Origin: an uncultured Gammaproteobacteria bacterium
GTDB taxonomy: Bacteria; Patescibacteriota; Microgenomatia; UBA8517
Reading direction: 5' to 3'
NCBI GenBank assembly: GCA_965231135.1
Contig: OZ246419.1
Location: 513,488 to 577,487 of the forward strand
Length of the DNA: 64,000 bases
Of the stretch, positions 24,624 through 56,095 are shown piece after piece; within the stretch, counting starts at the first letter, position 1, and the number at the start of each line of letters is the position of its first letter. The notes below the pieces were generated by a model that did not search any database, was not told the DNA's origin, and saw only the letters and a program-made list of their open reading frames with translations. Made by a program: the position numbers and the translations under genes.

Positions 24624-24665
24624 AAAAAGCGGATCATATTGATCCGCCTTCTGTTAAATAAACAT

Positions 24666-39194: not shown

Positions 39195-39267
39195 TGCCGA
39201 GAGTAGGAGTCGGACCTACATCTGACGCTCTTCAGGCGCCCGCCGTGACCACCTTGGCTATCTCGGC
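39195..39267 (-). tRNA. tRNA-Phe(GAA) with non-canonical T-loop (TCCGACT)
   Basis: Acceptor GCCGAGA/TCTCGGC. Anticodon arm GGCGC-CTGAAGA-GCGTC. T-arm GTAGG-TCCGACT-CCTAC, with C at position 55. Confidence 0.6.
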
Positions 39268-39491: not shown

Positions 39492-39532
39492 TGGGCGGTA
39501 CAGGGCTCGAACCTATGACCTTGAGGATGTAA
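39492..39532 (-). other. tRNA-Val 3' fragment (anticodon loop through discriminator). Left att remnant of the island.
   Basis: CTTACAT-CCTCA-AGGTC-ATAGG-TTCGAGC-CCTGT-ACCGCCC-A. The acceptor 3' strand is complementary to the GGGCGGT 5' half at 55877..55924. Confidence 0.65.
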
Positions 39533-39774
39533 GCGAAATGCTTCATCGCACAAATTTTAGGTTTAATCCCATCAACTGGGTTTAGTTTAGCACAACCATA
39601 TATTGGTATAAAACGATTGTTTAAACAAAATATTACTAGAATAATAGATGCAATTATTTCCTTCTTTGGTAAGTGATATTCAATCTTGACATTGAGATCT
39701 ATGGCAATCTAAAGTAAATGAGAGTGGTTTTGTTAGTTTGACAAAAACTAACTCACAATATATCATAATGCACC

Positions 39775-40065
39775 ATGTCAGATTCTAGTGATACTAAAAA
39801 GACTGAGCAAAAGAAAATTACTGCACAAGAAGCAGCCGAATTAGCAGTAAAGCACTATAGAGGAGTTACTAACGACAATACTAGTATCCTACGAGTTTCT
39901 GAAACAGAGCTCTCAGAAGATGAAAGCGTCTGGAAAATTACCCTCTCTATCGCAAACCCCTCTGATCCTTTTGCTCTTTATGGGGGTGCTCGTTTGGATT
40001 ATAAAACGTTTGAAATCAACGCTATGACGGGTATTGTAATCTCAATGAAGATTAGGCCAAATTGA
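39775..40065 (+). CDS. small beta-rich protein, putative antitoxin partner of the PIN protein
   Basis: 96 aa. 4-bp ATGA overlap with the downstream PIN gene. Confidence 0.35.
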   Translation: MSDSSDTKKTEQKKITAQEAAELAVKHYRGVTNDNTSILRVSETELSEDESVWKITLSIANPSDPFALYGGARLDYKTFEINAMTGIVISMKIRPN

Positions 40066-40592
40066 AGAACTTCTCCCTTACAGATTTATCTGAATATTCT
40101 AAATATTTAATTAGTAGATATAGAAATGTGGGTGTTTTATTAGACACTAATGTTCTTTTGTTATTGCTTGTAGGTTATTACGACCCTAATTATATTGAGC
40201 AAGTTAAACGAATAAGAAAGTTTACAAAGGACGACTATTTTCTTTTGGCATGGCTTGTGAAACTATTTCCAAAACTTGTGGTCACCCCACAAATTCTTGC
40301 TGAAATTTCAAATTTTCTTGACTTATCAAAAAAACTTAGTAAAGAACAATTCTTAATCTTTATTCAACTGTTTATAGAGAAAATAAGAGACACAAAGGAA
40401 ATTTATAAAGAGAAAAATGACATGGTTATACATAATTTATTACCTACGTTAGGTTTTACTGACGTGTCAATTTCTATGCTTGCTGAGAAAAAGAGATGTT
40501 TAGTTATTACAGCAGATGGTCCGCTTGCCCAACGCATTAGAGAGAAGGGTAGCGATGTGATAAATTTTGAAGAAATTAGAATTAAATTATAA
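40062..40592 (+). CDS. PIN-domain nuclease (VapC-like toxin, extended)
   Basis: VLLDTNVLLLLL N-terminal Asp motif, TPQILAEISNFL, CLVITADGPL C-terminal acidic motif. Confidence 0.55.
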   Translation: MKNFSLTDLSEYSKYLISRYRNVGVLLDTNVLLLLLVGYYDPNYIEQVKRIRKFTKDDYFLLAWLVKLFPKLVVTPQILAEISNFLDLSKKLSKEQFLIFIQLFIEKIRDTKEIYKEKNDMVIHNLLPTLGFTDVSISMLAEKKRCLVITADGPLAQRIREKGSDVINFEEIRIKL

Positions 40593-40618
40593 AAGATATA
40601 ATCTATTTTTTTGTTTTT

Positions 40619-40939
40619 TTACTTTTTACTATCTTGCATCCAAAACTCATCTATTGATTCCTGTATTTCTTCGTCTCGTTTGTCTTCAGCTTTTAGGGCT
40701 TCTCTTAACTCCTGAATCCTTTCAGGATCGAATTTATCTTCGATTTCTTCCTCAAGCTCTTTATCTGTATAGTTATCATACCCCTTAAAACCCATGCACA
40801 TTAATTCTTTTAGGTCATAGTAACATCTAGCAAATACCCATTCTTCGATACAATCCATTATTAGTAAATCGATCATCTCGTACCTTTGCTCTGTTTTTAT
40901 TTTTGTTTGTTTAACCTGTTTTTGATTCATTGTTATCAC
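40619..40939 (-). CDS. acidic hypothetical protein
   Basis: 106 aa, island-borne. Confidence 0.35.
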   Translation of the reverse strand: MITMNQKQVKQTKIKTEQRYEMIDLLIMDCIEEWVFARCYYDLKELMCMGFKGYDNYTDKELEEEIEDKFDPERIQELREALKAEDKRDEEIQESIDEFWMQDSKK

Positions 40940-40951
40940 CTCCTTCTGTGT

Positions 40952-42328
40952 TCATAAAAACTCATTAAATATTTTTTCTTCGGGACTTGCCAAAGTTTCT
41001 TGCTTTTCTATCGCAACTTGCTTGTCGTTTGTGTTTTTAATTTCGATTAGATTTAGGCATTCATTTGAGTAAAACCATTCAAATTCTTTTTTGAATCTAA
41101 TCATTTTTGACGGTCTTCCAGGAAAATCATCGCAATCAGTAGTCATATCAACGATTCCAAGAATTTTTAATTTTTCCATTTCTTTATCTGCTGTGGTAGA
41201 AGAACAATTTAAGCGTGTAACAATCTCTGTAGTCGTTGCTGCCCCATTGTTTAATATAAGAAATCTGAATATTTTTGTTCGTGAACTGGGAGCTGAATCA
41301 AATGCCACATTTAATACGATTTTGACATCTTCGCTGCTTATTTGGGTTCTATCACAAACTAAAGCATGGCCACGAGCTAGGTTATACAGTATTTGATTTA
41401 TTCTGTCTGGTTTCTCAATTACAGGTTCTTGGTATGAATAGTCTGTCCCGTCCAGTGAACTATCTTTCCACACATTAATACTACCTCTGAGCTTTGCCAA
41501 AATCGATGCAGCTCGAGAAATTATTTTAATTATTTCCATAGAATCATTTTGTTTGTTCCAAGTTATTCCATTAGGGAATGTTTTAAAAAGTGTTTCAATA
41601 TAGCTTTGGCTAGCACTAGTACACATCTTTTGTTTTTCTTTCCACGAAGACTTGATTAGTTGTTCAGCAAGCTCTACTTCGGTTTTCGTTGTACTTAGAA
41701 CATTCAAGAAAAATAGCCTAGACCCTAAGTTACCCATTAATTTGAAAATCCTTGGAGAAATAGGAGTTGAGGCAGCTAGAAGCATGAAATTGTAGCTACC
41801 AGAATAACCTCTACTTCCATGTACTCCTGCGTCAATTTGTAAACCTTCACCGTCCATTACACGCGTTAAAACACCCATATTTCGAAGTAGATCGTCGTCT
41901 CTTTGCCCGAACAGGGGAGCCATATCACGAATTATTAATACTTTATCTTTAATTCTTGGAAGTAAATCAACTTCGGCGAGTTTTTCTTTTTTGACATTTG
42001 CTGCCTGAGACACGAACGAGGATGGGGTAAAATTATCTGTCGCATAGGTGTAATCAGTTCCTGTGAACATATTTAGAATAATTGTTTTCCCAGCACTTGG
42101 GACATCGACTAAAACAATTGCACATGGATTGACAATGTCTTCTATTAAAAGCTGACCAAACATACTAAGACATACTTCTGCAGGCAAAACTAGTTCTGGG
42201 AAGTTAATTTTGATCACATCTTTCCATTCGGAATAATTCGATGTTTTTCCAACTAAATTTGACAGCGTGTTATCGTTTTCCGTCATAGGGTCTGATTTAG
42301 TTGGAATATTATTTTCTTCAAGATTCAT
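40952..42328 (-). CDS. P-loop NTPase replication protein (primase-helicase/SF3-like ATPase) with C-terminal winged helix
   Basis: Walker A VDVPSAGKT, Walker B LIIRDMAP. C-terminal wHTH GAATTTEIVTRLNCS...LKILGIV. Confidence 0.45.
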   Translation of the reverse strand: MNLEENNIPTKSDPMTENDNTLSNLVGKTSNYSEWKDVIKINFPELVLPAEVCLSMFGQLLIEDIVNPCAIVLVDVPSAGKTIILNMFTGTDYTYATDNFTPSSFVSQAANVKKEKLAEVDLLPRIKDKVLIIRDMAPLFGQRDDDLLRNMGVLTRVMDGEGLQIDAGVHGSRGYSGSYNFMLLAASTPISPRIFKLMGNLGSRLFFLNVLSTTKTEVELAEQLIKSSWKEKQKMCTSASQSYIETLFKTFPNGITWNKQNDSMEIIKIISRAASILAKLRGSINVWKDSSLDGTDYSYQEPVIEKPDRINQILYNLARGHALVCDRTQISSEDVKIVLNVAFDSAPSSRTKIFRFLILNNGAATTTEIVTRLNCSSTTADKEMEKLKILGIVDMTTDCDDFPGRPSKMIRFKKEFEWFYSNECLNLIEIKNTNDKQVAIEKQETLASPEEKIFNEFL

Positions 42329-42590
42329 AAAAAAGTACCTCCTTTTGTGTTGGGTATTTAGAAAATATCTTGTTTATTTTTCCTTGCCAGTATTTGTTAT
42401 TCTCAGTTGTGCCGGATGCTTCATTTGCCATTATTAAAGCTTTAATTGATTCAACAGTTTCTCTGTCAGTCCAGATTAATAAAGCTGCCCTAGTAAACGT
42501 ATTTTTGGAGAAATATGCTTTAGAGAGATATTCTTGAGATAAATTATCATGTTTAATAAACTCTTTTTTGTAGTGTTCAAATGCGCTCAT
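42318..42590 (-). CDS. hypothetical protein
   Basis: 90 aa. Translationally coupled with neighbours. Confidence 0.35.
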   Translation of the reverse strand: MSAFEHYKKEFIKHDNLSQEYLSKAYFSKNTFTRAALLIWTDRETVESIKALIMANEASGTTENNKYWQGKINKIFSKYPTQKEVLFYES

Positions 42591-42859
42591 TTTGTACCCT
42601 CCTCATATAGTCTTGATTTGAGCATTTTCAATTGATTAAAATGCGCGATTGGTTCTATACGAAGCTCTTTTCTCCAATATTGATTGATTAGTTTGTCCAA
42701 TTCTTCATTTTTTTTGAAAGCAAATTCGATTTTTTGGGGATTAGTTCTATCAATAAATTCAATTGGGGCAAAAAGAGATAATGTGCTACAAAGACTCAAA
42801 TCACTTGTGAAAAAATACTCATCTGGATCTTTATTCATATCTTTTAATATGAATATCAT
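42587..42859 (-). CDS. hypothetical protein
   Basis: 90 aa, overlapping stop/start. Confidence 0.35.
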   Translation of the reverse strand: MIFILKDMNKDPDEYFFTSDLSLCSTLSLFAPIEFIDRTNPQKIEFAFKKNEELDKLINQYWRKELRIEPIAHFNQLKMLKSRLYEEGTK

Positions 42860-42973
42860 CGTGTATTTAAAATAACTTTTTAAAATCGGTATAACTACTT
42901 TTTTAGGCTTAAATTTACTCTTTTTATTGTATTTACAAAAAGGGGTTACTTTTATAGTATCAAGTTTGTTTAT

Positions 42974-43816
42974 TTATTCGTCCAGGGTAAGTTTTTGCAA
43001 TTGAAATTGTGTTGATTCTGTAGTTTTGCCTTTTATTGTTTTGATATATAAACCCGCTGTGGCTAAAAGTTTGTTAGTTTTTAGTTTAAGGCTCTTAATA
43101 TTAATTGGTTTTTTCTTGTTCAGAGTGCTGTCTATTCTGTTTTGAACACTTTTCCTTAAATGTGGTTGTAAATCTGTTAATTCTTCTAAAAAAGATTTCA
43201 TTAGTTTAGCTTTTTTGTGCTTTTTTATAATTTCTCTGACGAGTTGCTTTGCTATTTTCTTTGTTAATTTTCTATTTGTTAGATTTTTTGCTGGTTCAGT
43301 TCGGTTATCCAAACAGACTTCAATGGTGTTATTCCAAAAGATGATTTTTCTTATTCTTATCTTCTTTTGGAAGCACAAATACATTAAACTGTGACAATAG
43401 TTGGGAGTTTCGTTTTTGAAAATTGTTATATTGTTTTTGCCATTTTCTGTGATGAAGTTTGGATTATTTATTTGGTCTATTATCTTATTTGCATATACTT
43501 CTGGTTTAGAATATATCGCTTGTCCCGATAGCTCTTTGTGCGAATATAACAGTTGATAATTTTTAATAAACTTTTCAAGATCTTTATATTGCAATGAGTT
43601 GACAGAAATCGTATAAGAATCCGTATTTTTAGTAAGTGAAAACATATTACTAAATACATTACTTTTTTCCATATCTTCAAAGTATTTTCCTGATAACGAC
43701 TTGCCAGTTACTTGTGCAAGATATTCATCTTTTTCAAAAGCAGATATTTTTAGATATATTGATAGAAGATTACCTAACAAAATATCTGGCAACAAACTTG
43801 TTTTGTTTATACCCAT
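42974..43816 (-). CDS. basic hypothetical protein
   Basis: 280 aa, K-rich. Confidence 0.4.
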   Translation of the reverse strand: MGINKTSLLPDILLGNLLSIYLKISAFEKDEYLAQVTGKSLSGKYFEDMEKSNVFSNMFSLTKNTDSYTISVNSLQYKDLEKFIKNYQLLYSHKELSGQAIYSKPEVYANKIIDQINNPNFITENGKNNITIFKNETPNYCHSLMYLCFQKKIRIRKIIFWNNTIEVCLDNRTEPAKNLTNRKLTKKIAKQLVREIIKKHKKAKLMKSFLEELTDLQPHLRKSVQNRIDSTLNKKKPINIKSLKLKTNKLLATAGLYIKTIKGKTTESTQFQLQKLTLDE

Positions 43817-43839
43817 TTTAATTTTAATTTGTACTTAGT

Positions 43840-44244
43840 CTACGCCTGTACCTTATTTTTGCTATTTTCCACTATTTCAACTTGTACTTTTGAGATCGCT
43901 TCCTTTGCATTTTCGATTAGCTGTCGTGGTTTACCTTCTGTAATGTCTGCAACAGCCCTGAAACTTGCTAAATCGTGTCTGGCCTTAAGGATCATCGCAA
44001 ATGCTAAATCACCAGCAACAGTTCTTTTATTTGTTGGTGTATTTTTTTGCCAGCTTAAAAATTCAGATACTGTTAGAGTCTTAAAATAATCAAGCCAATA
44101 CTTGAATGACTCTAAATTTTTGGGTCTTCCGCCTGGATTTCTGTGCTCCGGGTGATCTTTGAAACCCCCGCGACCCAAACGATTACGATTGAAATTGACT
44201 TGTTCTGTAGTCTGACTCATTAATGTATTATATCGCCTCCACAA
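43840..44244 (-). CDS. phage-associated GRPKN-motif protein (DUF5681-like), paralog of 25432..25833
   Basis: See 25432..25833. Conserved PGGRPKNLESFKYWLDYFKTLTVSEF block. Confidence 0.6.
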   Translation of the reverse strand: MWRRYNTLMSQTTEQVNFNRNRLGRGGFKDHPEHRNPGGRPKNLESFKYWLDYFKTLTVSEFLSWQKNTPTNKRTVAGDLAFAMILKARHDLASFRAVADITEGKPRQLIENAKEAISKVQVEIVENSKNKVQA

Positions 44245-44358
44245 AATTAAACCTAAAGTAACTACTATATAACGAGATTCTATTAAAAACAGAAGAATTG
44301 ATCAGAATATTGACAGATATAAATAAATATACTAAACTCTGCCTCATAATAAATTACT

Positions 44359-44538
44359 ATGAGTATTATTAAGCCATTTTTGACACCCTCTGACGTTGCA
44401 CGTGAGTTACAGCTTAATCTTCTAACCATTTACAAATACATTAGACAGAGAAAAATAACTGCTATCAAACTTGGTCGAAACTACCGAATAAAAAGAGTAG
44501 ATTTGGAAAAGTTTGTAAACGCTAACAAAACAGTTTAG
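44359..44538 (+). CDS. excisionase-family helix-turn-helix DNA-binding protein (59 aa, not in ORF track)
   Basis: FLTPSDVARELQLNLLTIYKYIRQRKITAIKLGRNYRIKRVDLEKFV matches the Xis/MerR-type HTH_17 pattern. Confidence 0.6.
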   Translation: MSIIKPFLTPSDVARELQLNLLTIYKYIRQRKITAIKLGRNYRIKRVDLEKFVNANKTV

Positions 44539-44556
44539 TCATTCTATTAAAAAATT

Positions 44557-45345
44557 ATGAATATAAATTATAGGAAAGCATTAATTATCGAAAATACATT
44601 TATCGCCCTCATAATTCTTCTTGTTGGGTTTGTAAGGGTTATTAATTCCGTTCCTGCAATAAAGAATGCCCTAGTAATGGCTACAACTCATCAGCCAGAG
44701 AGGTTTACAGAACTTTATTTCGAAAATCATACATCACTTTCCATTAACAGTTTTGAGTTTACTGTCCACAATTTGGAGGATAGGGAAATGACATACCCAT
44801 ACGAAGTTTATGTACAAAGCTCTGATGCTAAGCAACAGCAAATGATTGATAAAGGAGAATTTATCTTAAAACAAGGAGACTATAAAACTATTAGCGAATC
44901 TTTCGTACCTGGCTATAGTTTTATTGGACAGAAGGCAGACGTAATAGTAAATCTTGTTAATAAAGACCAGAAAATATCGTTTTGGACAACACCCACAAAC
45001 ACAAAAACCAGCATTCCTCAAGAACAGAAAGAGAACCTTCAATCAACAGGACTGTATTTTACGAGCGAATTACCTTTAAGAGTTTTACAAGGCCAACCCA
45101 TAAATTTTTCATTCGGTGTACAAAATTTAAAATATTCAGATCATATTTATCCATATACAGTCTATATAGAAGAAAATGGTAGAGATACGCAGATTATGCA
45201 GGGTGAAGCGTATGTAAAACAAAATTCTAGCACGACAATTTCTGTCTCCTATCAATTAGCAACTTTAATCAGAAATGCCAAGGTATACGTTCGATTAACC
45301 GGAGAAAATCAATATATTTATTTCCAAATGAAAGGTGCTCAATGA
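44557..45345 (+). CDS. membrane-anchored hypothetical protein, first gene of glycan cluster
   Basis: N-terminal TM helix. 4-bp overlap with the downstream GT2. Confidence 0.4.
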   Translation: MNINYRKALIIENTFIALIILLVGFVRVINSVPAIKNALVMATTHQPERFTELYFENHTSLSINSFEFTVHNLEDREMTYPYEVYVQSSDAKQQQMIDKGEFILKQGDYKTISESFVPGYSFIGQKADVIVNLVNKDQKISFWTTPTNTKTSIPQEQKENLQSTGLYFTSELPLRVLQGQPINFSFGVQNLKYSDHIYPYTVYIEENGRDTQIMQGEAYVKQNSSTTISVSYQLATLIRNAKVYVRLTGENQYIYFQMKGAQ

Positions 45346-46091
45346 AAAAAATTACCGTATTGATACCATGCTACAACGAAGAAAAAGGTGTTCAAAAGGT
45401 AATTAGAGGTATCCCTGTCGAGAAACTTCGCAGATTAGGTTTCAAGACTGAGGTTGTTGTGATTGATAACAATTCTACGGATAAAACATCTAGCGTGGCA
45501 AAGAAGCTGGGTGCGACTGTTTTATTTGAACCCAAAAAAGGAAAAGGTAACGCGATGAAGCTTGGTTTTTCTTATATAAACCTTGACACAGACTACATCA
45601 TCATGCTCGATGGGGACGATACATATAAGGGTTATGAAATTCCCCGGCTCGTTGAGCCGCTTGACAGTGGATTTTGCGATGTTGTGGTCGGCTCAAGGCT
45701 ATTAGGAAAAATAAACAAAGGTGCCTTTAAGTTTAGCAATAGAATCGTCAATTGGGGATATGCTTTTATGGTTAGGCATTTTTATCGTGCTAATGTTACA
45801 GATGTTTTAAGCGGTTTCTTTGCCTGGCGAAAGGAAGCGCTTGATGATTTAAAAATACATTTAAATTCTGACGGTTTCGCTATCGAGATGGAGATGATTA
45901 CAAAAATGGTTAAGATGGGCCACTCTGTTTATTCTGTTCCTATTACTTACGATGTCCGTGAAGGGGAATCTAAGATCAGTTCATTCGCGGACGGTTTTAG
46001 AATCTCAAAAATGTTTCTTAGAAATTTTACCTGGAAGCCAACTCAACCTGAAAAGCAAAAGATTGAAATAGATATTGAACAAGCAATATGA
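45342..46091 (+). CDS. GT2-family glycosyltransferase (Dpm1/GtrB-like polyprenyl-phosphate sugar transferase)
   Basis: VLIPCYNEE, VIDNNSTD, DGDDTY motifs. Confidence 0.7.
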   Translation: MKKITVLIPCYNEEKGVQKVIRGIPVEKLRRLGFKTEVVVIDNNSTDKTSSVAKKLGATVLFEPKKGKGNAMKLGFSYINLDTDYIIMLDGDDTYKGYEIPRLVEPLDSGFCDVVVGSRLLGKINKGAFKFSNRIVNWGYAFMVRHFYRANVTDVLSGFFAWRKEALDDLKIHLNSDGFAIEMEMITKMVKMGHSVYSVPITYDVREGESKISSFADGFRISKMFLRNFTWKPTQPEKQKIEIDIEQAI

Positions 46092-47251: not shown

Positions 47252-49515
47252 AGATAATTGTTATTCCCAACATGCCTACAATGTCTGGTAGGCATTATTG
47301 CATTGCGAAAAGCTTTGTTGAGCACGGGCACGAGGTCCACTATATGATGTGGGCTTTGCCCTACGGAATGAATGCCAAAGGATTGTTAAGACATTGCTTT
47401 ACATCTTTAATACCGAATAAGTCTAGATATGAAGAGTTTACTGTTCATAAAGCAATCCGGCTTCCTTATTTTTGGCCTTTAATAAACGGTTTTCTTTTTA
47501 AATATCAAATAACAAATCTTTACAAGAAATTAGAGGCGGATTTTATATTTACTGAAGGTTACACAAATGAAACAGAAGTCCCTTGTGATCTTCCTTTTAT
47601 ATATGATTTGGCTGATGACTATGCTGCCCCTGCTGATGTTTACGGATCGCTTGTTTATAAATTTGCCTTCAAACTTCTTAACGTTAGTGGTGTTATGGAG
47701 AGACAGAGCAAAAATGCTTTGGCTGTTACTGCTGTTTCGGAAGCACTTCGTAAATATGCAAAAAGATTTAATAAGAATGTCTATAAATCGCCAAATGGTG
47801 TTGATAATAAAATCATTAGAAAAGTATTAAAAGATAAATCAACATATTCCAAAAATAATTTTTCAATGATTTACGTAACAGGCTTCGGCCCATGGAGTCG
47901 TGCGATAGAGACACTGAAAACAACCGTAAAACTACACCAAGAATTTCCTGAACTCAGTCTTACTCTTGTGGGAAAAGGTAATCAGGTTAATGATATGTTG
48001 GAGTTTATTAAAGAGAATAAAGCTGAAAGTTATATCCACTACCTAGGTTTTGTTGGTAATCGCGAACAACTATTCAGAAGAATAAATACGCACAGTATCG
48101 GATTGAATATTTCTGATAAAAACAAGTGGAGAGATGCTGCACATCCTATTAAAGTTCTCGAATATTCTGCATTAGGGAAGAGAGTTGTTTCTACTGATTT
48201 ATATGAGGTAAAGGCACTACGGTTTCCTAACATCTTTTTATTCTCTGACAGAAAAGGCGGAAAATCTCTTGAAAATACTCTACGACTAGCTCTACAAGAT
48301 TCGCGCGATATAAAGGATTTTAAAAACATAAGCTCACATGTTTTAAAGACATATAACTGGGATACAGAGGCCAAAAGGATCATAAAGATTGTTAGAGATA
48401 TGAAAAATAGTAAAAGTGTCGAAGTAGGTAAAATCGTGCATGTTACTCCATCTTATCCCCCTAATCTAGGTGGGCTGGAAAAAGTTGTACAGCTTCTAGC
48501 ACGAGTTCAAAAAGATAAGGGTTTGAATGTATCTGTGATAACTTCGCAACCAGATAGAAAACAAAGACTCGAAAAAGATGTAGTGCAGGTTACTCGACTG
48601 AGGAGTTTTAAATTTGCAAGTACTAAGATAATGCCAGGATTACTAACCAAGATACTTGCAATTAAGCCAAATGACATAGTTCACCTACATATAATTTCTG
48701 CTTATATGCCAGAAATAGTGTGGTTAGCTTCTAAAATAAAGGGCTTTAAATATATTGTTCATTTACATCTAAATATAGAGGCTACGACACGCGCAGGGTG
48801 GCTTTTGAAACTTTATAAGCCTTATATATTAAAACGTGTATTGACGGGAGCAAGTTATATAGTTGTGTTTACTCAAGAACAAAAAAACTCTGTATTCAAA
48901 GAATATGGTGTCGATAAATCAAAAATTAAAGTAATCCCTAATGGAGTAGAAGATAAGTTCTATTTTGATAAACCTAGGAAACAACATAAAAAACCTCGAT
49001 TGCTTTTTGTAGGTAGGCTTGACGTACAGAAAAATTTGCCTCAGTTTTTATACGGGCTTGATGGGATCTCTGATCATTTTGAGACTATCATTGTCGGGGA
49101 TGGAGCGTTAAAGCATGATCTTAAAAAATTGGCAAAAGAGTTGAAACTAAAGAGGATATCTTTTGTCGGACGTAAGGACGGGACAAATTTAATTAGATAT
49201 TACAAATCTTCCGACATTTTTATATTGCCTTCCGAGCGTGAAGGGATGCCGCTTGCACTACTAGAAGCGATGGCAATGGGTCTGCCTTCTGTGGTAACAG
49301 ATGTATCTGGAAACCACGATGTGATTATAGATGGACAAAATGGGAAACTCGTTCCATTAGGAGATCCGCTTGCACTTAAGAATGCAATTAAAAGTTTAAG
49401 CAATAGTAGAAGATTATATACAAACATGAGTATGTCTGCTTATCAAACGGCTCATAAGTATTCGTGGAATGTTATATCCAACCAGTTTGAAAAATTATAT
49501 GAAAACACTATTTAA
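47248..49515 (+). CDS. tandem double GT4-family glycosyltransferase
   Basis: Two GT-B units. Second unit carries EREGMPLALLEAMAMGLPSV (E-X7-E). Confidence 0.7.
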   Translation: MKIIVIPNMPTMSGRHYCIAKSFVEHGHEVHYMMWALPYGMNAKGLLRHCFTSLIPNKSRYEEFTVHKAIRLPYFWPLINGFLFKYQITNLYKKLEADFIFTEGYTNETEVPCDLPFIYDLADDYAAPADVYGSLVYKFAFKLLNVSGVMERQSKNALAVTAVSEALRKYAKRFNKNVYKSPNGVDNKIIRKVLKDKSTYSKNNFSMIYVTGFGPWSRAIETLKTTVKLHQEFPELSLTLVGKGNQVNDMLEFIKENKAESYIHYLGFVGNREQLFRRINTHSIGLNISDKNKWRDAAHPIKVLEYSALGKRVVSTDLYEVKALRFPNIFLFSDRKGGKSLENTLRLALQDSRDIKDFKNISSHVLKTYNWDTEAKRIIKIVRDMKNSKSVEVGKIVHVTPSYPPNLGGLEKVVQLLARVQKDKGLNVSVITSQPDRKQRLEKDVVQVTRLRSFKFASTKIMPGLLTKILAIKPNDIVHLHIISAYMPEIVWLASKIKGFKYIVHLHLNIEATTRAGWLLKLYKPYILKRVLTGASYIVVFTQEQKNSVFKEYGVDKSKIKVIPNGVEDKFYFDKPRKQHKKPRLLFVGRLDVQKNLPQFLYGLDGISDHFETIIVGDGALKHDLKKLAKELKLKRISFVGRKDGTNLIRYYKSSDIFILPSEREGMPLALLEAMAMGLPSVVTDVSGNHDVIIDGQNGKLVPLGDPLALKNAIKSLSNSRRLYTNMSMSAYQTAHKYSWNVISNQFEKLYENTI

Positions 49516-51724
49516 AATTAAAAAGCTGTGGCTAAAGAGATCAAAAGAACTGATGATTTGGCAAATTATATTGCCTTTATTGGTTGTAGCTAATATTTCT
49601 TATTTAATTGGAGGAATAGTTGGATCAATTATTACGCTTTCCTTTTTTCTGTTTGCTCCTGGATATTTATTTTTGAATCTATTAAAGCATGAACTAAAGT
49701 CCAAATGGGAAATTGGTAGTTTCTCTATGGGCATAAGTCTACTTTCTATAATGCTCGGAGGATTGTGTCTTAATACATTAAATATATTTGGTCTTTCGCA
49801 ACCGCTTACGAGTCTTAATATTTTTCTTATGCTGAATTTATTTGTAATATCGCTGTTGTGGGTCAATCGTAAGAAAAAAATCAAGATACCAAAACTACAA
49901 ATAAAAGCATCTAAGGAACAATTGGTAATCGCTGGCTTATTAACGTTTTTGCCTTTCTTGGCAGCAGGCGGAGCTACGACTTTAAATAATGGTGGTTCAA
50001 ACACTCTTACAATGATTCTTTTTGCATTAATACCAATCGTCTTTATAATCCTTGTCGCACGTAAGAACTTGCAATCTTTGTATCCGTATGCAATTTTTAC
50101 AATGGCTTTGGCGATTTTGTTTAGTACTTCATTGCGTGGCTGGTATATAACAGGACATGATATTCAACATGAATTTTCAGTATTTCAACATACTTACCAA
50201 GATAACCTTTGGCATGTGAGGGTTGCGATGGGCGATCCATATAATGCATGCCTGAGTATCACTATACTTCCTACAATAATTGCTAAAATTACCACAATAC
50301 CTTCTGTGTATGTTTATAAATTCTTCTTTCAGATTATTTTTGCATTCGGATTGATGCCGGTTTATTTGTTTGTAAGAAAATTTACGAACTCAATTTATGG
50401 ACTAATTGCTGCGTTTATTTTCATCACTTTTCCGACATTTCTCGATGACATGCCATTTCTCAATAGGCAAGAGATAGGTTTCATATTCTTTGGGCTTCTT
50501 GTAATGCTTACTTTCTCTAAGATTAAAAAGGGTACAAAGATGTTACTTAGTGTAGCCATCTTGCTTGGCATCATGTTTTCTCATTATTCCAGTAACTATG
50601 TTACGCTTTGTATTCTACTTGGTGCTTGGTTTATTTTTAATTTGCTAAAAAGAACACAGACTATAAAAAATAACTCCTTTGAAATACCAATATTAAGACT
50701 TTGGATTATCGTAGGCGCTATTATATTGACTTTTCTTTGGAACTCCCAAATCACAGCTTCGGCATCAAATTTAGAAACGGCGGTTATTCAGACCATAGAT
50801 GATTTTAGATACAAAAGGTCTGTAGAAGACAGATTCCTTAGTTATGGATTAATTGAACGATCAGTAACCGATTTAAAGAGTCAATTTGAAGAGTTTGTAA
50901 AAACACGAAGTATTTCAGCCCAATATACATCTCCATCTGATATGCCATTAACATATTTAGGACAAAAGCTTTCTTCAATAATTGACGTAAAATCTTTCAA
51001 TTACGGTATACATACTGCTATAGCAAAGATATATCAAGTTTTGATAATACTTGGAACTGTTATTTATTTCTTTAAACAGAGAAGAACAGCAAATAAAGAG
51101 GGTAGTTATTATATTTCAATCATTTTTGCAGGTCTTATCTTATTAGTAACTTTTACATTATTTCCACGGTTGGCTAGTGATTATAGCGTTATAAGGCTGA
51201 TCCAACAAACATTAGTGTTGACTGCTTTGCCTATTATTTTTGCAACAGAATTTCTTTTTGGTCTGTTTAGACGATATAAGCAAATAGTAGTTGCGGTTTT
51301 GTTTGTCGTTTTATTTTTACATTCTTCAGGCTTTGTTCCACAACTAACAGGTGGCTATAAACCTTTGTTAGCACTTAACAACGCTGGAGTCTATTATGAT
51401 TATTTTTATACCCACGAAAGTGATCTGTTAAGCACTAACTGGCTTGCAGAGAATATGGATAAAAGTTTACCAGTTTTCCATGATGTTATTTCTGACTTAT
51501 CAATTATAAATTATCCCCGCAAAACTGGGTTACTCTATTCTGATAACGAGACAAGACAACAAATGTCACTAGCATATATTTATTTGGGCTATACAAATAC
51601 AACTAAGGGTATATTTAGAACCTTTCAGATTGGTGATTTTACTGAATATATAGATACTTCAATAACATTAAATCGCAATCTTATTTATAACAATGGTAAA
51701 AGTCGTATTTATTTAGGATTATGA
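49469..51724 (+). CDS. large polytopic membrane protein (DUF2206/GT-C or polymerase-like)
   Basis: About 15 TM helices. The true start may be an internal Met (49499 or 49553), since the tracked start overlaps the upstream gene by 47 nt. Confidence 0.5.
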   Translation: MLYPTSLKNYMKTLFKIKKLWLKRSKELMIWQIILPLLVVANISYLIGGIVGSIITLSFFLFAPGYLFLNLLKHELKSKWEIGSFSMGISLLSIMLGGLCLNTLNIFGLSQPLTSLNIFLMLNLFVISLLWVNRKKKIKIPKLQIKASKEQLVIAGLLTFLPFLAAGGATTLNNGGSNTLTMILFALIPIVFIILVARKNLQSLYPYAIFTMALAILFSTSLRGWYITGHDIQHEFSVFQHTYQDNLWHVRVAMGDPYNACLSITILPTIIAKITTIPSVYVYKFFFQIIFAFGLMPVYLFVRKFTNSIYGLIAAFIFITFPTFLDDMPFLNRQEIGFIFFGLLVMLTFSKIKKGTKMLLSVAILLGIMFSHYSSNYVTLCILLGAWFIFNLLKRTQTIKNNSFEIPILRLWIIVGAIILTFLWNSQITASASNLETAVIQTIDDFRYKRSVEDRFLSYGLIERSVTDLKSQFEEFVKTRSISAQYTSPSDMPLTYLGQKLSSIIDVKSFNYGIHTAIAKIYQVLIILGTVIYFFKQRRTANKEGSYYISIIFAGLILLVTFTLFPRLASDYSVIRLIQQTLVLTALPIIFATEFLFGLFRRYKQIVVAVLFVVLFLHSSGFVPQLTGGYKPLLALNNAGVYYDYFYTHESDLLSTNWLAENMDKSLPVFHDVISDLSIINYPRKTGLLYSDNETRQQMSLAYIYLGYTNTTKGIFRTFQIGDFTEYIDTSITLNRNLIYNNGKSRIYLGL

Positions 51725-54372
51725 AAAAAATAATTAACATCAAATATATCCAAAGGGTTAGCTCCTTTTGTCTGTCTATCGTAAAAAACAAACTTTTGTT
51801 TAATTCTTTGAGTCTAATGGTTGCATCAGGAGTAACGGCTGGATTCGGATTTATATTTTGGACTATTATTGCTAGATCTTATTCTACACAATCTGTAGGT
51901 TTTGCAACAACGCTGCTTTCGGTTGCAACAATTTTATCTTTAATAGGACTCGCAGGTTTCGATACAATTTTTTTACGTTTTTTATCAAAAACTGAAGATA
52001 AAAATATACAAATTAATAATGGTGTTATTGTGACAGGCATTGTTTCATTTATTGTTTCAAGTATTTTTTTAATTTTTTTGCCGATTCTATCTCCTACTCT
52101 CCAAATCATATTTCAGGGGAACTGGTATCCTTTGTTATTCGTACTCTTTACTATTTTTATGTCATGGAATATCTTAACTAATTCGATACTCATTTCACAC
52201 CATCATACTTCGTTAATCTTATTAATTGAATTACTATCAGGGATATTTAAGCTGATACTTGCGATGTTTTTTAACACATCAGGAACTATTACTATCTTTT
52301 CAATTGTTGGTCTTAGTCAAATTTTCAACGTTGTTTTAAGTGTATTTTTGATTATACGTGTATTGCACTACAAACCTTCGCTACAATTTGATATTCAATC
52401 CTTAAAGAAAAATTATCGATTCGGATTAGTAGCTTATATATCACAGTTGTTGAATTTATTACCTGCTTCTCTGTTGCCGTTAATCGTTGTTAATACTCTT
52501 GGTGCAACCTCAGCAGCATACTATTATGTCTCCTTTTCGATTGCAAATCTGTTATATACGATTGCTTATACAACAAATCAAGTACTTCTTGCGGAATCTT
52601 CCGGTAGCGAAGAGTTATTTCTGTCAATTGCAACACGAGGAATAAAAATAATAACTGGAATCATGACTCCAGTTATAGCTCTTGTTGTTTTGTTTTGTCC
52701 TGCATTATTATTACTTTTTGGAGGAAATTATTCTAGAGAAGCTAGTACTCTTTTACGAATTATGTGTTTAGCCGGTTTTATTGTGGCAATCTATTCTTTC
52801 CTTGGTTTTATCTTTAAACATACTAAAAATCTAAAGGCCTTATTATTTATGTCTGCTACATATGTTGTTTCCATTTTATCGTTAAGTTACTTCTTGATAA
52901 GTGTGTACGGGCTTATTGGTGTGGGTTTTGCGTGGTTCTTGGGAACGTTAATTTCTATTTTTATCGGTATTATATTTATGGTGTTACGAATAAATATTGT
53001 TCGTCAACCAGCTGCTTCTCCTAAAAATATCTTAATAACACACTTCTATTCGAAAAATAATAATGGGGATGCTGCGTTACTAAGTGTATTAATAAATGAT
53101 CTTAAGCGAAAATTTGGAAATCCTGCAATTTCCATAGTTGCCTCTGATGTTGTGAAACAAAATGAAAGGTTTGATGGTATTAATGTTTATAGTTCGTTTA
53201 TGTTTTACGCGATGAATCGTTTTAAAAGTCGTCATTTAACTTTTTTGTATTCAGTATATGTTATGATGGTCACGTTTTTATGGGCAGTGGTTTATAGATA
53301 CACCAAATTTTCTATACCAATACCTAAAGGAATCCAGCGTCTGTGTTTATATTACTCAAAGGCAGATTTGATTATTCCAGTGGGAGGTGGATATTTACGT
53401 GGCCAAAATAAAGGGATCGGCAGCTTACTGTATATCTGTTTAATTTTACATCCTTTGATCATAGGAAATGTTTTAAGAAAACCTAATGTCTTATATACTC
53501 AGTCAGTTGGACCTTTTTCTAATAGATTTGAAAGTTATCTTGTATCAAAAGTATTGAATTCATTCTCTCAAGCAGTCATTGTTCGTGAAAATATTTCTCA
53601 TAATATATTGAGGGGTAGAGTTAAAAAACTATACCGTTCGGTAGATTCTGGATTTGCCTTTGAAGGTAAAGGAAATTTTTATAATTTAGATAAAGTACTA
53701 AATCAAAAAAGATATCAATTTATCATTGGTGTAACAGCTAAAAAATATTTTAAATCCGAACTGCAAGAGAAATATGAACTGGCTCTTGCCAGAACTATTG
53801 AGTATATTTTTACTAAATATAGAGCGGCTGTTATTCTTATTCCACAAGTAACTGCTGAATATAACGGAGACGATGATCGAATTGTCCATAATCGAATTTT
53901 TTCGTATATCAGAAATAAAAAGGATGTATACGTAATTAACGACAAGCTTAACCACTACGATATAAAAACCATATATGGGCAGTTAGACTTGGTCATCGGA
54001 ACGAGATTCCATTCAGTTATTTTTTCACTTACATCTTATGTTCCAGCTATTGCTATTGAATACGAGCATAAAACAAGAGGAATTATGAAAGATTTAGGAT
54101 TAAGTAAATGGGTGATAAAAATAGAAGATGTTAATTTAGCAAAATTATCATCTATGGTAGATAAACTTGTCGAAGAACGCGTTATATATAGGGAAAAACT
54201 TATAAAGGTAATTCCTACATATCGCTCTCGAGCGAAAAATGCTATAGCAATTGTAGACAAACAATATAAAGAGTATATTACCAGCTCCAAACATGTAAAT
54301 AGAGAGGGTGTCTTCAAAAGACCTTTCCGGAGATTTAAGTTAATCTTTAACAACTTTAGTTTTTCTAGTTGA
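51721..54372 (+). CDS. fusion of Wzx-type (MOP superfamily) polysaccharide flippase and polysaccharide pyruvyl transferase (CsaB/WcaK-like)
   Basis: N-terminal about 420 aa with about 14 TM helices. C-terminal domain with GTRFHSVIFSL...PAIAIEYEHKTRG, typical of PS_pyruv_trans. Confidence 0.6.
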   Translation: MKKIINIKYIQRVSSFCLSIVKNKLLFNSLSLMVASGVTAGFGFIFWTIIARSYSTQSVGFATTLLSVATILSLIGLAGFDTIFLRFLSKTEDKNIQINNGVIVTGIVSFIVSSIFLIFLPILSPTLQIIFQGNWYPLLFVLFTIFMSWNILTNSILISHHHTSLILLIELLSGIFKLILAMFFNTSGTITIFSIVGLSQIFNVVLSVFLIIRVLHYKPSLQFDIQSLKKNYRFGLVAYISQLLNLLPASLLPLIVVNTLGATSAAYYYVSFSIANLLYTIAYTTNQVLLAESSGSEELFLSIATRGIKIITGIMTPVIALVVLFCPALLLLFGGNYSREASTLLRIMCLAGFIVAIYSFLGFIFKHTKNLKALLFMSATYVVSILSLSYFLISVYGLIGVGFAWFLGTLISIFIGIIFMVLRINIVRQPAASPKNILITHFYSKNNNGDAALLSVLINDLKRKFGNPAISIVASDVVKQNERFDGINVYSSFMFYAMNRFKSRHLTFLYSVYVMMVTFLWAVVYRYTKFSIPIPKGIQRLCLYYSKADLIIPVGGGYLRGQNKGIGSLLYICLILHPLIIGNVLRKPNVLYTQSVGPFSNRFESYLVSKVLNSFSQAVIVRENISHNILRGRVKKLYRSVDSGFAFEGKGNFYNLDKVLNQKRYQFIIGVTAKKYFKSELQEKYELALARTIEYIFTKYRAAVILIPQVTAEYNGDDDRIVHNRIFSYIRNKKDVYVINDKLNHYDIKTIYGQLDLVIGTRFHSVIFSLTSYVPAIAIEYEHKTRGIMKDLGLSKWVIKIEDVNLAKLSSMVDKLVEERVIYREKLIKVIPTYRSRAKNAIAIVDKQYKEYITSSKHVNREGVFKRPFRRFKLIFNNFSFSS

Positions 54373-54381
54373 AATAAGAAA

Positions 54382-54618
54382 TTGATACTTATGAATAAAA
54401 TAACAAAGATTGTAAAAGCAATTTCTTTTACCTTATTCGTCTTTGGTTTTACTGGCTGGATTTATATAGCTATTAATGCATGGGTACACCCTCAAACACT
54501 AAGTTGGCAATTGACACATCTTACTCCATGGATCAGAGAAGATACCTTTGGTATCATTTGTTTTATTGTTTCTTTTGTTTCTTTTTTTGTGTGGAATTTA
54601 ACAAGAGAAGAAAAATAG
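54382..54618 (+). CDS. small membrane protein
   Basis: 78 aa with 2 TM helices. Confidence 0.3.
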   Translation: MILMNKITKIVKAISFTLFVFGFTGWIYIAINAWVHPQTLSWQLTHLTPWIREDTFGIICFIVSFVSFFVWNLTREEK

Positions 54619-54637
54619 GCTTGAGTTGGTTGTGCAT

Positions 54638-55672
54638 TTACACTTCAATTGTTAATTTTATTAATTTTTTACCATCATCTTCGCTAGCGATTATTTTTCC
54701 AATATCGCTAATTCGCTCGTAAATCTCTTTTATTTTTAGACCCCTGTCTCTATATTTTCTAGACTCACTGCTATATCGTCTTAAGGTTCTTTGTTGAGTT
54801 GCAGTATTGAACTCCAAATATTTCAGAGTCGTTTCAAGATTGGCGTGGCCCATTGCATCTTTAATATCTGAATCTTCAGCTCCATTATTTTTTAAATCCC
54901 TTGCAAAAATTCTACGTAAATCGTGGACTTGCAATGGGTGACCCCAAAGCTTTCCCGCCTGACGCATAATAGCTTCTAGTCTCTTTTCACCAACTACAAA
55001 CAGTCGTTGAGAATAATCTTCTTTGTAATGACCTTTATCATTTAATATTTCTAGTTCTTCTGGATTTTTTCCTTGCAGTCTTTCTTCTAGATCTTTAATT
55101 AACCAGGGGACTTCAGGAATACTTACCATTCTCGGGCCTGTTTTACCTTGTCGAATTTGCACTTGTCTACCGCTCAAGGAAACATCGCTTAATAGGATAT
55201 TTCGTGTTTCGTAATTTCTGCCACCGCAGGCAACGAGAATGAATTTGAGACAAGCACGATGTTCTTTCTTAGAAAACCTGTGCTGGCGATTGTCGTAAAG
55301 TCCTGGTTCTGTAACCTTATCTATTAATTTAAGCATCTCAGCTTGAGAGGGAAGTATGCGAAGTTTTCTATTTACGGGAGTTCTTGCCATTCCTGCTGCC
55401 CAGTCTTTTTCTAAAATCCCTTCATTGAACATCCATCTGACAATCTTTTTGACAAATGTTTCGGCCTGACGACGCGATGATTCCGCTTTGCCTTTTTGTC
55501 TTAAATTCAAGAAATAATCTTCTGCCGTATCGCGATTAAAGGGTTTATCTTCAATAAAATCTAGCAAGTTTTTTGCCCAATCTTGATTATTTTTATGGGT
55601 TTTTGGTTTCCAACTTCTATCTTTATACTTAAAATATTTGTTTATATTTTCTTCTAATTCTTTTTTTAGCAT
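54638..55672 (-). CDS. tyrosine-type site-specific integrase
   Basis: R...HDLRRIFA (HxxR) and GHANLETTLKYL (catalytic Tyr) motifs. Adjacent to tRNA-Val and the split tRNA half. Confidence 0.8.
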   Translation of the reverse strand: MLKKELEENINKYFKYKDRSWKPKTHKNNQDWAKNLLDFIEDKPFNRDTAEDYFLNLRQKGKAESSRRQAETFVKKIVRWMFNEGILEKDWAAGMARTPVNRKLRILPSQAEMLKLIDKVTEPGLYDNRQHRFSKKEHRACLKFILVACGGRNYETRNILLSDVSLSGRQVQIRQGKTGPRMVSIPEVPWLIKDLEERLQGKNPEELEILNDKGHYKEDYSQRLFVVGEKRLEAIMRQAGKLWGHPLQVHDLRRIFARDLKNNGAEDSDIKDAMGHANLETTLKYLEFNTATQQRTLRRYSSESRKYRDRGLKIKEIYERISDIGKIIASEDDGKKLIKLTIEV

Positions 55673-55747
55673 ATGAGTACAAGACGTTAATCCTAATACT
55701 CATGTGTTTTTTAATATTAATATTTGAAGCAGCTAATCTCCGAAGTG

Positions 55748-55820
55748 TGCTCGTTCAAGGACTCGAACCTTGGACCCTTCGCATGTAAAGCGAATGCTCT
55801 ACCAACTGAGCTAAACGAGC
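55748..55820 (-). tRNA. tRNA-Val(TAC)
   Basis: GCTCGTT...TTCGC-TTTACAT-GCGAA...CAAGG-TTCGAGT-CCTTG-AACGAGC-A. Confidence 0.85.
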
Positions 55821-55876
55821 TTATTTTGGCCGCTTTTAGCTTCAAGAGCCCCCTTTACATCTCTATACTAGCACAA

Positions 55877-55924
55877 CACTTCGAGGATGTAAACCGAGCG
55901 CTCTACCAACTGAGCTAACCGCCC
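55877..55924 (-). other. tRNA-Val(TAC) 5' half (acceptor through anticodon loop). Right att remnant of the island.
   Basis: GGGCGGT-TA-GCTC-AGTTGGTA-GAGC-G-CTCGG-TTTACAT, then non-tRNA sequence. The partner 3' half lies at 39492..39532. Confidence 0.65.
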
Positions 55925-55928
55925 TTTG

Positions 55929-56010
55929 TGCGGGAGACAGGACTTGAACCTGCATGGATTGCTCCACACGCTCCTTAGGCGTGCCTGTATACCAATTTCA
56001 GCACTCCCGC
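55929..56010 (-). tRNA. tRNA-Leu, type II, anticodon read as AAG
   Basis: Anticodon arm CACGC-CTAAGGA-GCGTG. 13-nt variable arm. T-arm GCAGG-TTCAAGT-CCTGT. Confidence 0.65.
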
Positions 56011-56023
56011 ATATATTTTCCTG

Positions 56024-56095
56024 TGCTCCCAGACGGAATCGGACTGTCATCTTCTCCTTAGAAGGGAGTTGCTCTATCCATTGAGCTATGGGAGC
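56024..56095 (-). tRNA. tRNA-Arg(TCT) with non-canonical T-loop (TCCGATT)
   Basis: Anticodon arm ACTCC-CTTCTAA-GGAGA. T-arm GACAG-TCCGATT-CCGTC. Confidence 0.65.

Follow-up and report, generated by a model that had tools for sequence, protein, structure and literature searches.

A 16.4 kb integrative island of Patescibacteria splits a host tRNA-Val(TAC) gene and carries an intact tRNA-Val(TAC) of its own

In conventional tRNA-gene islands the crossover reportedly has a sublocation in the anticodon loop (Williams 2002). The island analyzed here shares with Islander-type islands (PMC4383910) this sublocation, a tyrosine integrase at one end and, at the other, a displaced piece of the tRNA; in those islands, however, attP carries a tRNA fragment and the target gene is restored, whereas here attP would carry the core only and the gene stays broken. 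A closer parallel is tRNA-dependent lysogeny, which was shown experimentally for actinobacteriophages (Fionnbharth/K4, Cluster L, CQ2, DL and Gaia/X), where an essential tRNA with a single gene in the host is disrupted and integrants need the tRNA carried by the element to survive (Guerrero-Bustamante and Hatfull, mBio 2024, PMC10865867). With these phages the island has in common a tyrosine integrase, an attB located within a host tRNA gene with the overlap in the anticodon-loop region, a short core (10 nt, as compared to about 8-17 bp in the phages) from which no tRNA is rebuilt, and a tRNA of the element that matches the anticodon of the disrupted one, in our case with a different body sequence. 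It differs from them in its host, which belongs to the Patescibacteria rather than the actinobacteria, in its target, tRNA-Val(UAC), in carrying metabolic cargo and no recognizable phage genes, and in being known here from sequence alone. The position of the replacement tRNA differs as well, that of the island having the attP core on one side and the integrase gene on the other, while that of Fionnbharth is found elsewhere in the genome under its own promoter (PMC10865867). A target tRNA that is left unrebuilt and a cognate tRNA carried by the element are also reported for prophage Lj965, whose host, Lactobacillus johnsonii, is a Firmicute (cited in PMC10865867).

Our analysis of a 64 kb stretch of DNA (referred to as the window) from an 810 kb genome supports a 16.4 kb integrative island with one half of a split host tRNA-Val(TAC) gene at each end. 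At the right junction (attR, 55883..55924, minus strand) the 5' part of the gene covers tRNA positions 1-38 at 55887-55924 and reads, from 55924 to 55887, GGGCGGT-TA-GCTC-AGTTGGTA-GAGC-G-CTCGG-TTTACAT; 3 nt separate its start from the end of tRNA-Leu(AAG), which together with tRNA-Arg(TCT) makes up the upstream part of the host tRNA array (55928..56095, minus strand; same order in the related loci L003 and L039). The displaced 3' part, tRNA positions 33-73, is located at the left junction (attL, 39492..39532, minus strand), reads TTACAT-CCTCA-AGGTC-ATAGG-TTCGAGC-CCTGT-ACCGCCC-A from 39532 to 39492 and sits upstream of tRNA-Phe(GAA) and tRNA-Gly(GCC), the downstream members of the array (39047..39267, minus strand; same order in L001, L003 and L004). 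The acceptor strands of the two halves pair at all seven positions (GGGCGGT with ACCGCCC), and the T arm and acceptor strand at attL match those of intact tRNA-Val genes in other bacteria. The exact 10-mer core TTACATCCTC occurs twice in the 64 kb, both times on the minus strand, at 39523-39532 and 55883-55892, that is at the two junctions only (chance expectation for exact matches about 0.1 by our own estimate), and the island measures 16,360 bp from core to core. These results bear out the initial annotation, which had read from the sequence a tRNA-Val(TAC) split into these halves, as well as an intact tRNA-Val(TAC) and a tyrosine integrase just inside the right junction. At attL and attR no tRNA is called by ARAGORN or Rfam, and an Rfam scan of the isolated 3' half gives no tRNA match, as expected of a half molecule. 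No second tRNA-Val(TAC) beyond the island copy is present within the window. The G+C content of the island equals that of its surroundings, and no transfer genes were recognized in it. An archaeal split tRNA, considered when a Drg-like GTPase and the DUF2206 protein described below had first suggested an archaeon, was rejected: the homologue search places the host in the bacterial Patescibacteria (MAG GCA_035549555.1), and trailer-leader complementarity between the halves is absent.

The intact tRNA-Val(TAC) of the island (55747-55820, minus strand; ARAGORN and Rfam) has, at 72.7 bits, the top tRNA score in the window. Its acceptor stem (GCTCGTT/AACGAGC), anticodon stem and T stem all differ from those of the host halves, while the anticodon is the same. 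It starts 66 nt downstream of the complete, separate host 5' half, adjoins the crossover site and is oriented like the gene that was split, with the host Arg-Leu tRNA array ahead of it. We propose that it would serve as the replacement for the split host gene, a role that the initial annotation had overlooked. The tyrosine integrase (54638..55672, minus strand; PF00589) comprises 344 aa, with residues R152, K177, H250, R253, H276 and Y285 invariant across 23 relatives. Its family is rare, with 27 matches overall and two loci among GTDB species representatives, one of which was already known. A search of IMG/VR returned only a 44-residue match at chance level, and the family was counted as absent there; the island tRNA likewise has no match in IMG/VR, nor does the predicted attP in its viral contigs. 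The spacer between attR and the island tRNA, corresponding to the P' arm (55821..55882, minus strand), contains TGC-TAGTAT at 55865-55873, starting 17 nt after TTTACA, and GTTGTGCTA at 55869-55877; the same 9-mer recurs at 39588-39596 in the P arm, the non-coding left end of the island (39533..39774, minus strand). A TGn-TAnnnT motif is found at the same distance in all seven readable attR sites. In the window, TTTACA followed after 17 nt by TGnTAnnnT would fit a promoter of the island tRNA; this assignment was rejected, as just 2 nt separate the end of the hexamer from the tRNA in L039 and L042 and as the 9-mer is also present in the P arm. The motif is at least as likely to represent an integrase arm site or the promoter of the integrase gene as a tRNA promoter.

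The initial annotation had suggested looking for a relative with an uninterrupted tRNA-Val at this position, and L003 provides one: it carries the array Arg(TCT)-Leu(AAG)-...-Val(TAC)-Phe-Gly between the same flanking genes, and the island is absent. No match to the intact host-type tRNA, queried with its full 5' stem, loop and T arm, turned up in species-representative genomes. Other islands with a related integrase occupy the same target tRNA. The order of host 5' half, TTTACA, 17 nt, TGn-TAnnnT, intact tRNA-Val(TAC) and integrase is found in seven loci (the window, L004, L009, L036, L037, L039 and L042), in other words in every readable integrase relative; the sequences of L040 and L041 begin within the element tRNA. 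The element tRNA-Val(TAC) is also present in eight related loci. Both island ends could be read for the window, L004 (7.2 kb) and L042 (10.4 kb), while the far ends of L009, L036, L037 and L039 lie beyond the 10 kb examined. The cargo differs from island to island, the integrase being the only common gene apart from one HTH_3 pair shared by L004 and L036.

With the anatomy of the island, the empty site in a relative and the recurrence of the cassette with different cargo as observations, we consider it probable that the island is a tRNA-Val(UAC)-splitting element carrying its own tRNA and belonging to a small family in Patescibacteria. The core of this family would be a compact cassette of attP core, tRNA-Val(UAC) and tyrosine integrase. 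The integrase would recombine attP with the anticodon loop of the host tRNA-Val(UAC), at tRNA positions 33-39/42, and because attP and the tRNA are identical over only 7-10 bp, a functional tRNA would be rebuilt at neither junction. The full tRNA-Val(UAC) of the element, placed 2-44 nt past the conserved motif and directly downstream of the truncated 5' half, would then be transcribed and processed from behind the host array and replace the lost gene, while the remainder, namely the ten-kilobase glycan operon, the primase-associated ATPase, the PIN protein and the excisionase-family HTH protein, would be cargo or accessory. Expression of and need for the island tRNA, activity of the integrase and movement of the island from cell to cell are inferred. 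Genomes of the candidate phyla radiation are tiny and typically hold one gene per tRNA species, and to our knowledge few mobile elements have been described from them. The principle of replacing the tRNA is already published (PMC10865867); here it would operate in a non-phage island with sugar-chain genes, so that, if this is true, disrupting the tRNA and bringing one's own would extend past actinobacterial phages to a non-viral island family of this radiation. The core-tRNA-integrase cassette would be a natural minimal integration module for which 7-10 bp identical to the anticodon loop, which is universally conserved, would suffice; this may be why it can serve diverged hosts. Finders of the Islander kind look for a regenerated tRNA, and such elements would be missed or mapped wrongly by them; a tRNA gene that adjoins an integrase in a metagenome-assembled genome may be island-borne and essential. 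A further-reaching version, which we put forward only tentatively, is that of a self-sufficient "target-and-replace" cassette moving varied metabolic modules among Patescibacteria, in which positions 41-42 have here been overwritten from GA to TC, the host gene could not be restored, and the cell would depend on the replacement tRNA as an addiction device locking the island in.

Positions 41-42 bear directly on the mobility of the window copy. Both of its junctions carry the element-type TC at these tRNA positions, a state that a simple crossover in a 7-bp overlap would not produce, and a tRNA restored by simple excision would have a disrupted anticodon stem. The initial annotation had proposed to rebuild attB by aligning the two halves; although their acceptor strands pair, a sound tRNA does not result, as positions 27-31 (CTCGG) and 39-43 (CCTCA) form two of five pairs and ARAGORN miscalls the rejoined halves as tRNA-Cys. 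In intact tRNA-Val genes that share the 5' stem strand, the sequence is CCGAA-AGGTC. Since restoration of the host tRNA would thus be prevented, the window copy may be fixed, and the island could be a fossil that integrated as described and is now immobile, with the host tRNA-Val irreversibly lost and the island tRNA serving as the tRNA-Val gene of the host. We regard this as possible but rather unlikely. It would agree with the two-of-five stem, with a G+C content equal to that of the host and with the failure to detect the excised form as predicted attP in IMG/VR, whereas the full-length integrase with all catalytic residues, the exact core repeats and the restorable sites of the sister islands L004 and L042, whose rejoined halves give a perfect tRNA-Val, argue against it. 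A further point against fixation comes from Logan contig SRR12170516_2396768, which equals window positions 39493-55914 exactly, with tRNA position 41 as the end of its first 31-mer and position 42 as the start of its last. Contig breaks between 41 and 42 would be due to a co-occurring copy of the same tRNA with other bases at this point, that is an unoccupied tRNA, and suggest that such an allele coexists with the island in SRR12170516.

The left module begins with a 96-aa protein without a significant family match (39775..40065, plus strand), which overlaps by 4 nt the start of a gene for a PIN-fold protein of 176 aa from a TTG start (40062..40592, plus strand; called as 154 aa elsewhere). 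A search against PDB sequences returned nothing for the latter, and detection of the fold required a profile together with an AF2 model; this model has a pLDDT of 95, its best Foldseek matches are PAE2754, AF0591 and VapC PIN domains, and residues D28, E81, E113 and D134 are invariant. Of the PIN toxin pair proposed initially, the PIN fold is thus confirmed, while the 96-aa "antitoxin" matches no family. On the minus strand follow a 106-aa protein (40619..40939), a 458-aa P-loop ATPase (VPSAGKT; 40952..42328), two 90-aa proteins, the second a DUF5659 match (42318..42859), and proteins of 280 aa and 134 aa, the latter with a GGRPKN motif (42974..44244). The ATPase is helicase-like and primase-associated with a C-terminal winged HTH (weak HTH_11 match), and many of its 877 homologues are fused N-terminally to Toprim, Prim-Pol or zf-CHC2 domains, in agreement with its first description as a replication ATPase. 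A 59-aa HTH_17 protein (44359..44538, plus strand) does belong to an excisionase family, as first noted (PF12728, 3e-12; TIGR01764, 45 bits at a cutoff of 28.8; phrog_66), but its role does not follow from this: it may be a recombination directionality factor or, as it is encoded 10 kb from the integrase and directly ahead of the glycan operon, a regulator of that operon. Nothing else in the left module was matched by PHROGs, NCBIfam or PADLOC.

The glycan operon (44557..54372, plus strand) encodes a 262-aa membrane-anchored protein, a GT2 of the polyprenyl-phosphate sugar synthase type (45342-46091; AglJ-like, best PDB matches DPMS 5mlz and ArnC), a GT4 (46088-47251), a double GT4 (47248-49515), a DUF2206 polytopic membrane protein (49469-51724) and an 883-aa fusion of a MOP-type flippase (Polysacc_synt and Polysacc_synt_3, residues 27-337) to a WcaK/CsaB-like pyruvyl transferase (51721-54372). 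The gene content thus agrees with the glycan cluster annotated initially, but the attribute "complete" goes further than the matches: Pfam and NCBIfam gave none in the island to an initiating phosphoglycosyl transferase or a Wzy polymerase, and no sugar-nucleotide genes were found there. The DUF2206 protein, for which the PDB sequence search returned no solved relative, might fill the membrane role of the pathway. Surface-glycan modification cassettes borne by phages and islands, such as those of Gtr-type serotype conversion, combine a GT2 of the polyprenyl-phosphate sugar synthase type with a flippase and with a polytopic membrane protein of large size. The island resembles these cassettes in bringing the three together on a putatively mobile element and differs from them in its larger operon with three extra GT4 domains, a pyruvyl transferase and the DUF2206 membrane protein. 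In L009, purine biosynthesis genes follow the integrase, and the modules moved would include these if they are cargo. Surface-glycan genes, and possibly purine synthesis in the sister island, would point to a horizontal supply of traits relevant to episymbiosis.

This gene content also speaks to whether the island could be a temperate phage with strict tRNA-dependent lysogeny whose virion genes are too divergent to be recognized. The island has both sequence hallmarks of the phage system (PMC10865867) and seven proteins of the left module are small or unassigned; however, genes for glycosyltransferases, flippase and membrane proteins take up about 10 kb of the 16.4 kb, the structural, terminase and lysis families of PHROGs gave no match, IMG/VR contains neither the integrase family nor the island tRNA, and the roughly 5 kb of unassigned genes are too little for a tailed virion, all of which makes a phage very improbable. 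There is scarcely any chance that the element is a conventional tRNA-targeting island with the intact tRNA-Val as its regenerated target gene: integration in the anticodon loop with a displaced 3' fragment at the far end is typical of such islands (PMC4383910, PMC7192596), yet the separate host 5' half upstream of the intact tRNA is complete, and this regenerated-gene reading is refuted by stems that differ and by a junction identity that ends after 10 nt instead of spanning a tRNA half. Joining of the halves in trans, known from the split tRNA genes of Nanoarchaeota, might be suggested by acceptor strands that match perfectly at a distance of 16 kb; it has a vanishingly small probability given a bacterial host, a trailer-leader duplex no better than those of shuffled sequence (-18.5 against a mean of -17.7 kcal/mol), an anticodon stem that would not form, and the presence of an integrase and a full replacement tRNA. 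A mis-join of unrelated contigs at a shared tRNA sequence during assembly or binning, for which tRNA sequences in a metagenome-assembled genome are classic sites, is of negligible probability, as attR is identical in three assemblies (the NCBI MAG and Logan contigs of SRR12170510 and SRR12170514), attL in two (the NCBI MAG and SRR12170510), and a 121 kb Logan contig covers the entire island plus both flanks.

The initial annotation had described a host tRNA-Val(TAC) split by the 16.4 kb island, and this description is confirmed. The host 5' part (55924 to 55887, minus strand) starts 3 nt past tRNA-Leu(AAG) and is flawless, comprising the acceptor strand GGGCGGT, the D arm, the anticodon-stem 5' strand CTCGG and the loop TTTACAT. 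The 3' part (39532 to 39492, minus strand) reads TTACAT-CCTCA-AGGTC-ATAGG-TTCGAGC-CCTGT-ACCGCCC-A, corresponding to loop, variable region, T arm and acceptor strand, and is followed downstream by tRNA-Phe and then tRNA-Gly. The acceptor strands of the two halves (GGGCGGT/ACCGCCC) pair at seven of seven positions, and the exact 10-mer TTACATCCTC occurs in the window at the two junctions only. As independent Logan assemblies show the same junction sequences as the NCBI MAG, a mis-join is excluded. The predicted attB contains GCTCGGTTTACATCCGAAAGGTCATAGG and the predicted attP contains GCATTTCGCTTACATCCTCGAAGTGTTGTGC. ARAGORN and Rfam both count 13 tRNA genes across the window, and neither calls a tRNA at either junction; the top tRNA score (72.7 bits) belongs to an intact, island-borne tRNA-Val(TAC) (55747–55820, minus strand).

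A Patescibacteria MAG encodes a protein 100% identical to the flanking GTPase, and the window was located on the 810,692-bp contig DASZQR010000010.1 of GCA_035549555.1. At the related locus L003, whose GTPase is 71% identical, the neighbourhood is kept: the array reads Arg(TCT)-Leu(AAG)-(one ORF)-Val(TAC)-Phe-Gly, the tRNA-Val is uninterrupted, and no integrase or glycan genes are found at the locus. This empty site, together with the same Val-Phe-Gly order at a second related locus (L001), identifies the 16.4 kb as an insertion into a conserved tRNA array. The host GTPase (37634–38725) matches MMR_HSR1_Xtn, the Drg type that is usually met in archaea and eukaryotes. Its close homologues number in the thousands; the few with a source name are all from Patescibacteria.

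A comparable arrangement is tRNA-dependent lysogeny, defined experimentally for mycobacteriophage Fionnbharth and others, in which a tyrosine integrase uses a common core of ~10 bp inside a tRNA gene without the tRNA being rebuilt, while a tRNA of matching isotype, encoded by the element, complements the loss (Guerrero-Bustamante and Hatfull, 2024; PMC10865867). The window island resembles these phages in both sequence hallmarks, which leads us to read the island tRNA-Val(TAC) as a putative replacement that would take over from the disrupted host gene. Unlike the phage cases, the island contains no phage genes, and its tRNA lies not elsewhere in the element but in the interval from core to integrase gene, oriented like the broken gene and following the host Arg-Leu tRNAs. 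The island family is absent from IMG/VR. No terminator-like site was found between the host Arg-Leu tRNAs and the island tRNA, so that read-through transcription is possible and, with RNase P processing, could express the island tRNA, an expression step that we infer. The principle dates from 2024, and those who described it foresaw tRNA-dependent lysogeny elsewhere (PMC10865867); in the literature searched, neither the candidate phyla radiation nor a non-phage island is reported to show it. New here are the host phylum, the target tRNA, the non-viral element and the compact core-tRNA-integrase cassette, with the logic unchanged. The finding is generalisable and carries a testable twist, without being a new category.

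The two halves do not rebuild a sound tRNA when joined, as the rejoined anticodon stem (positions 27–31, CTCGG, against 39–43, CCTCA) forms two of five pairs and ARAGORN returns a mis-registered tRNA-Cys. Scanning JGI metagenomes with GGTAGAGCGCTCGGTTTACATCC yielded 20 intact tRNA-Val(TAC) genes on 19 contig stretches, all of which go on with GA (GAA, GAT or GAG). Three of these stretches (L022, L023, L034) read CCGAA-AGGTC-ACAGG-TTCGAGC-CCTGT, almost the same as the window 3' half, and the rejoined sequence is called as tRNA-Val(TAC) once CCGAA is swapped in. Both window junctions carry TC at tRNA positions 41–42 (39523–39524 and 55883–55884), where the intact equivalents have GA. Because the intact genes carry GA and CCGAA restores the tRNA-Val call, the TC is foreign to the tRNA and matches the island's P' arm sequence at the right junction (CCTCGAAG). 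A simple exchange within a 7-bp overlap, as in the related island L042, would keep the native GA at the left junction; with TC at both junctions, a simple crossover does not account for the window. Possible causes are heteroduplex correction, a displaced second exchange, or the footprint of an earlier excision and re-integration. The double TC also implies that simple reversal could not restore the host tRNA. The window copy would thus either be fixed, or its excision would be lethal unless another tRNA-Val(UAC) exists; under both readings the island tRNA would be the working gene. The possibly irreversible junction of the window is a further new feature.

A hint of an unoccupied allele comes from the Logan contig SRR12170516_2396768 (16,422 bp), whose readable parts equal window 39493–55914 exactly. 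Logan assemblies are built on 31-mers. The first 31-mer of the contig ends at tRNA position 41 and the last starts at 42, and such ends arise when the neighbouring 31-mers (positions 10–40 and 43–73) are shared with a sequence differing at 41 and 42. The simplest candidate for this sequence would be an intact tRNA, ...CATCC-NN-AAGGTC..., i.e. the CCGAA form, which could belong to an empty site within this population or to a relative whose tRNA is identical.

Only 27 relatives of the integrase (PF00589; R, K, H, R, H and Y invariant) are detectable. In every relative with readable upstream DNA (L004, L009, L036, L037, L039 and L042), a host-type 5' part ending in the anticodon loop is followed by a short spacer, an intact, different tRNA-Val(TAC) and the integrase. 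The L009 integrase is 76% identical to that of the window, L036 is from Daviesbacteria, and the sequences of two further loci (L040, L041) start within the element tRNA. Both ends are visible in L004 (7.2 kb) and L042 (10.4 kb); the far end bears the matching 3' part, and the rejoined halves give a perfect tRNA-Val in both. As common core, L004 has TTACATCGAA and L042 no more than TTACATC, and these ends and cores place the exchange in the anticodon loop. The L037 record (CAZCNP010000001.1) is labelled Gammaproteobacteria; its cassette is the same as in the Patescibacteria loci, and the T loop of its element tRNA, TCCGAAT, is unusual.

At each of the seven right junctions that could be read, the motif TGn-TAnnnT lies exactly 17 nt past the loop TTTACA, and it resembles an extended -10 element whose -35 partner would be supplied by the anticodon loop. 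Since the motif ends 2 nt ahead of the tRNA in L039 and L042, and the 9-mer GTTGTGCTA of the window spacer is found again in the P arm, it may equally be a candidate integrase arm site or the promoter of the integrase gene. An 8-nt inverted repeat, CGAAGTGT/ACACTTCG (55874–55881 and ~55739–55746), brackets the spacer and the island tRNA of the window; visual inspection of the L009 and L004 spacers revealed no comparable repeat.

BLASTP between the islands detects no shared protein besides the integrase, and the ORFs of the L004 island add only one HTH_3 pair, shared with L036. The cargo seen includes the window's glycan genes; L036 has a Pif1 helicase and nucleases, L039 and L040 have proteins of ~1130 aa, and L041 has one of 1065 aa. 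In L042, the 10.4 kb island encodes a protein with an FtsK_alpha domain as well as an AAA_15 ATPase (at 6798–7583 and 9809–11719), which hint at a DNA-translocation or transfer function absent from the window island. In L009 (4733–13586), purB, purK, purC, purE, purL, purQ and purM lie directly past the integrase, followed by an OLD-family nuclease; this purine-biosynthesis operon is probably part of a sister island.

The glycan operon of the window (44557–54372) contains the predicted GT2, GT4, double GT4, membrane protein (751 aa, DUF2206) and MOP-type flippase fused to a WcaK/CsaB-like pyruvyl transferase, but the claim of a complete cluster goes too far, as no initiating transferase or sugar-nucleotide genes were found in the island. 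Among solved structures, dolichol-phosphate mannose synthase and ArnC come closest to the GT2 protein, and among NCBIfams AglJ does so, pointing towards a synthase of the polyprenyl-phosphate sugar type. The 59-aa protein proposed as an excisionase-like HTH does match the excisionase family; because it immediately precedes the glycan operon, with the integrase 10 kb away, a regulatory role would be equally possible. A 22-nt direct repeat (ATTCTATTAAAAA...; 44277–44298 and 44541–44562) brackets its gene and may be a candidate operator or promoter pair ahead of the xis-like gene and the glycan operon. The 458-aa protein, which has a Walker A motif, falls in a family with 877 members, and fusions to Toprim, Prim-Pol or DnaG zinc-finger domains are present in many of these, which marks it as a primase-associated ATPase. 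From the proposed PIN toxin pair, the 176-aa protein has a PIN fold (model pLDDT 95; best Foldseek matches PIN and VapC structures), while its 96-aa upstream partner is without assignment.

Elsewhere in the window, the 3' end of a large serine recombinase gene (21661–23211, minus strand) overlaps tRNA-His (21642–21716, plus strand) and is followed by an HTH_36 protein and a tRNA_anti-like OB protein; the region 21642–25109 may be a second small integrated element. L009 holds an ORF with a faint LAGLIDADG_3 match (113–544) between tRNA-Arg(TCT) and tRNA-Leu(AAG). At ~9170–9545 of L039, a duplicated tRNA-Arg(TCT) 5' fragment with a stem-loop insertion precedes a GIY-YIG-like ORF and then an intact tRNA-Arg(TCT), an arrangement resembling the insertion of a homing endonuclease into the same tRNA array.
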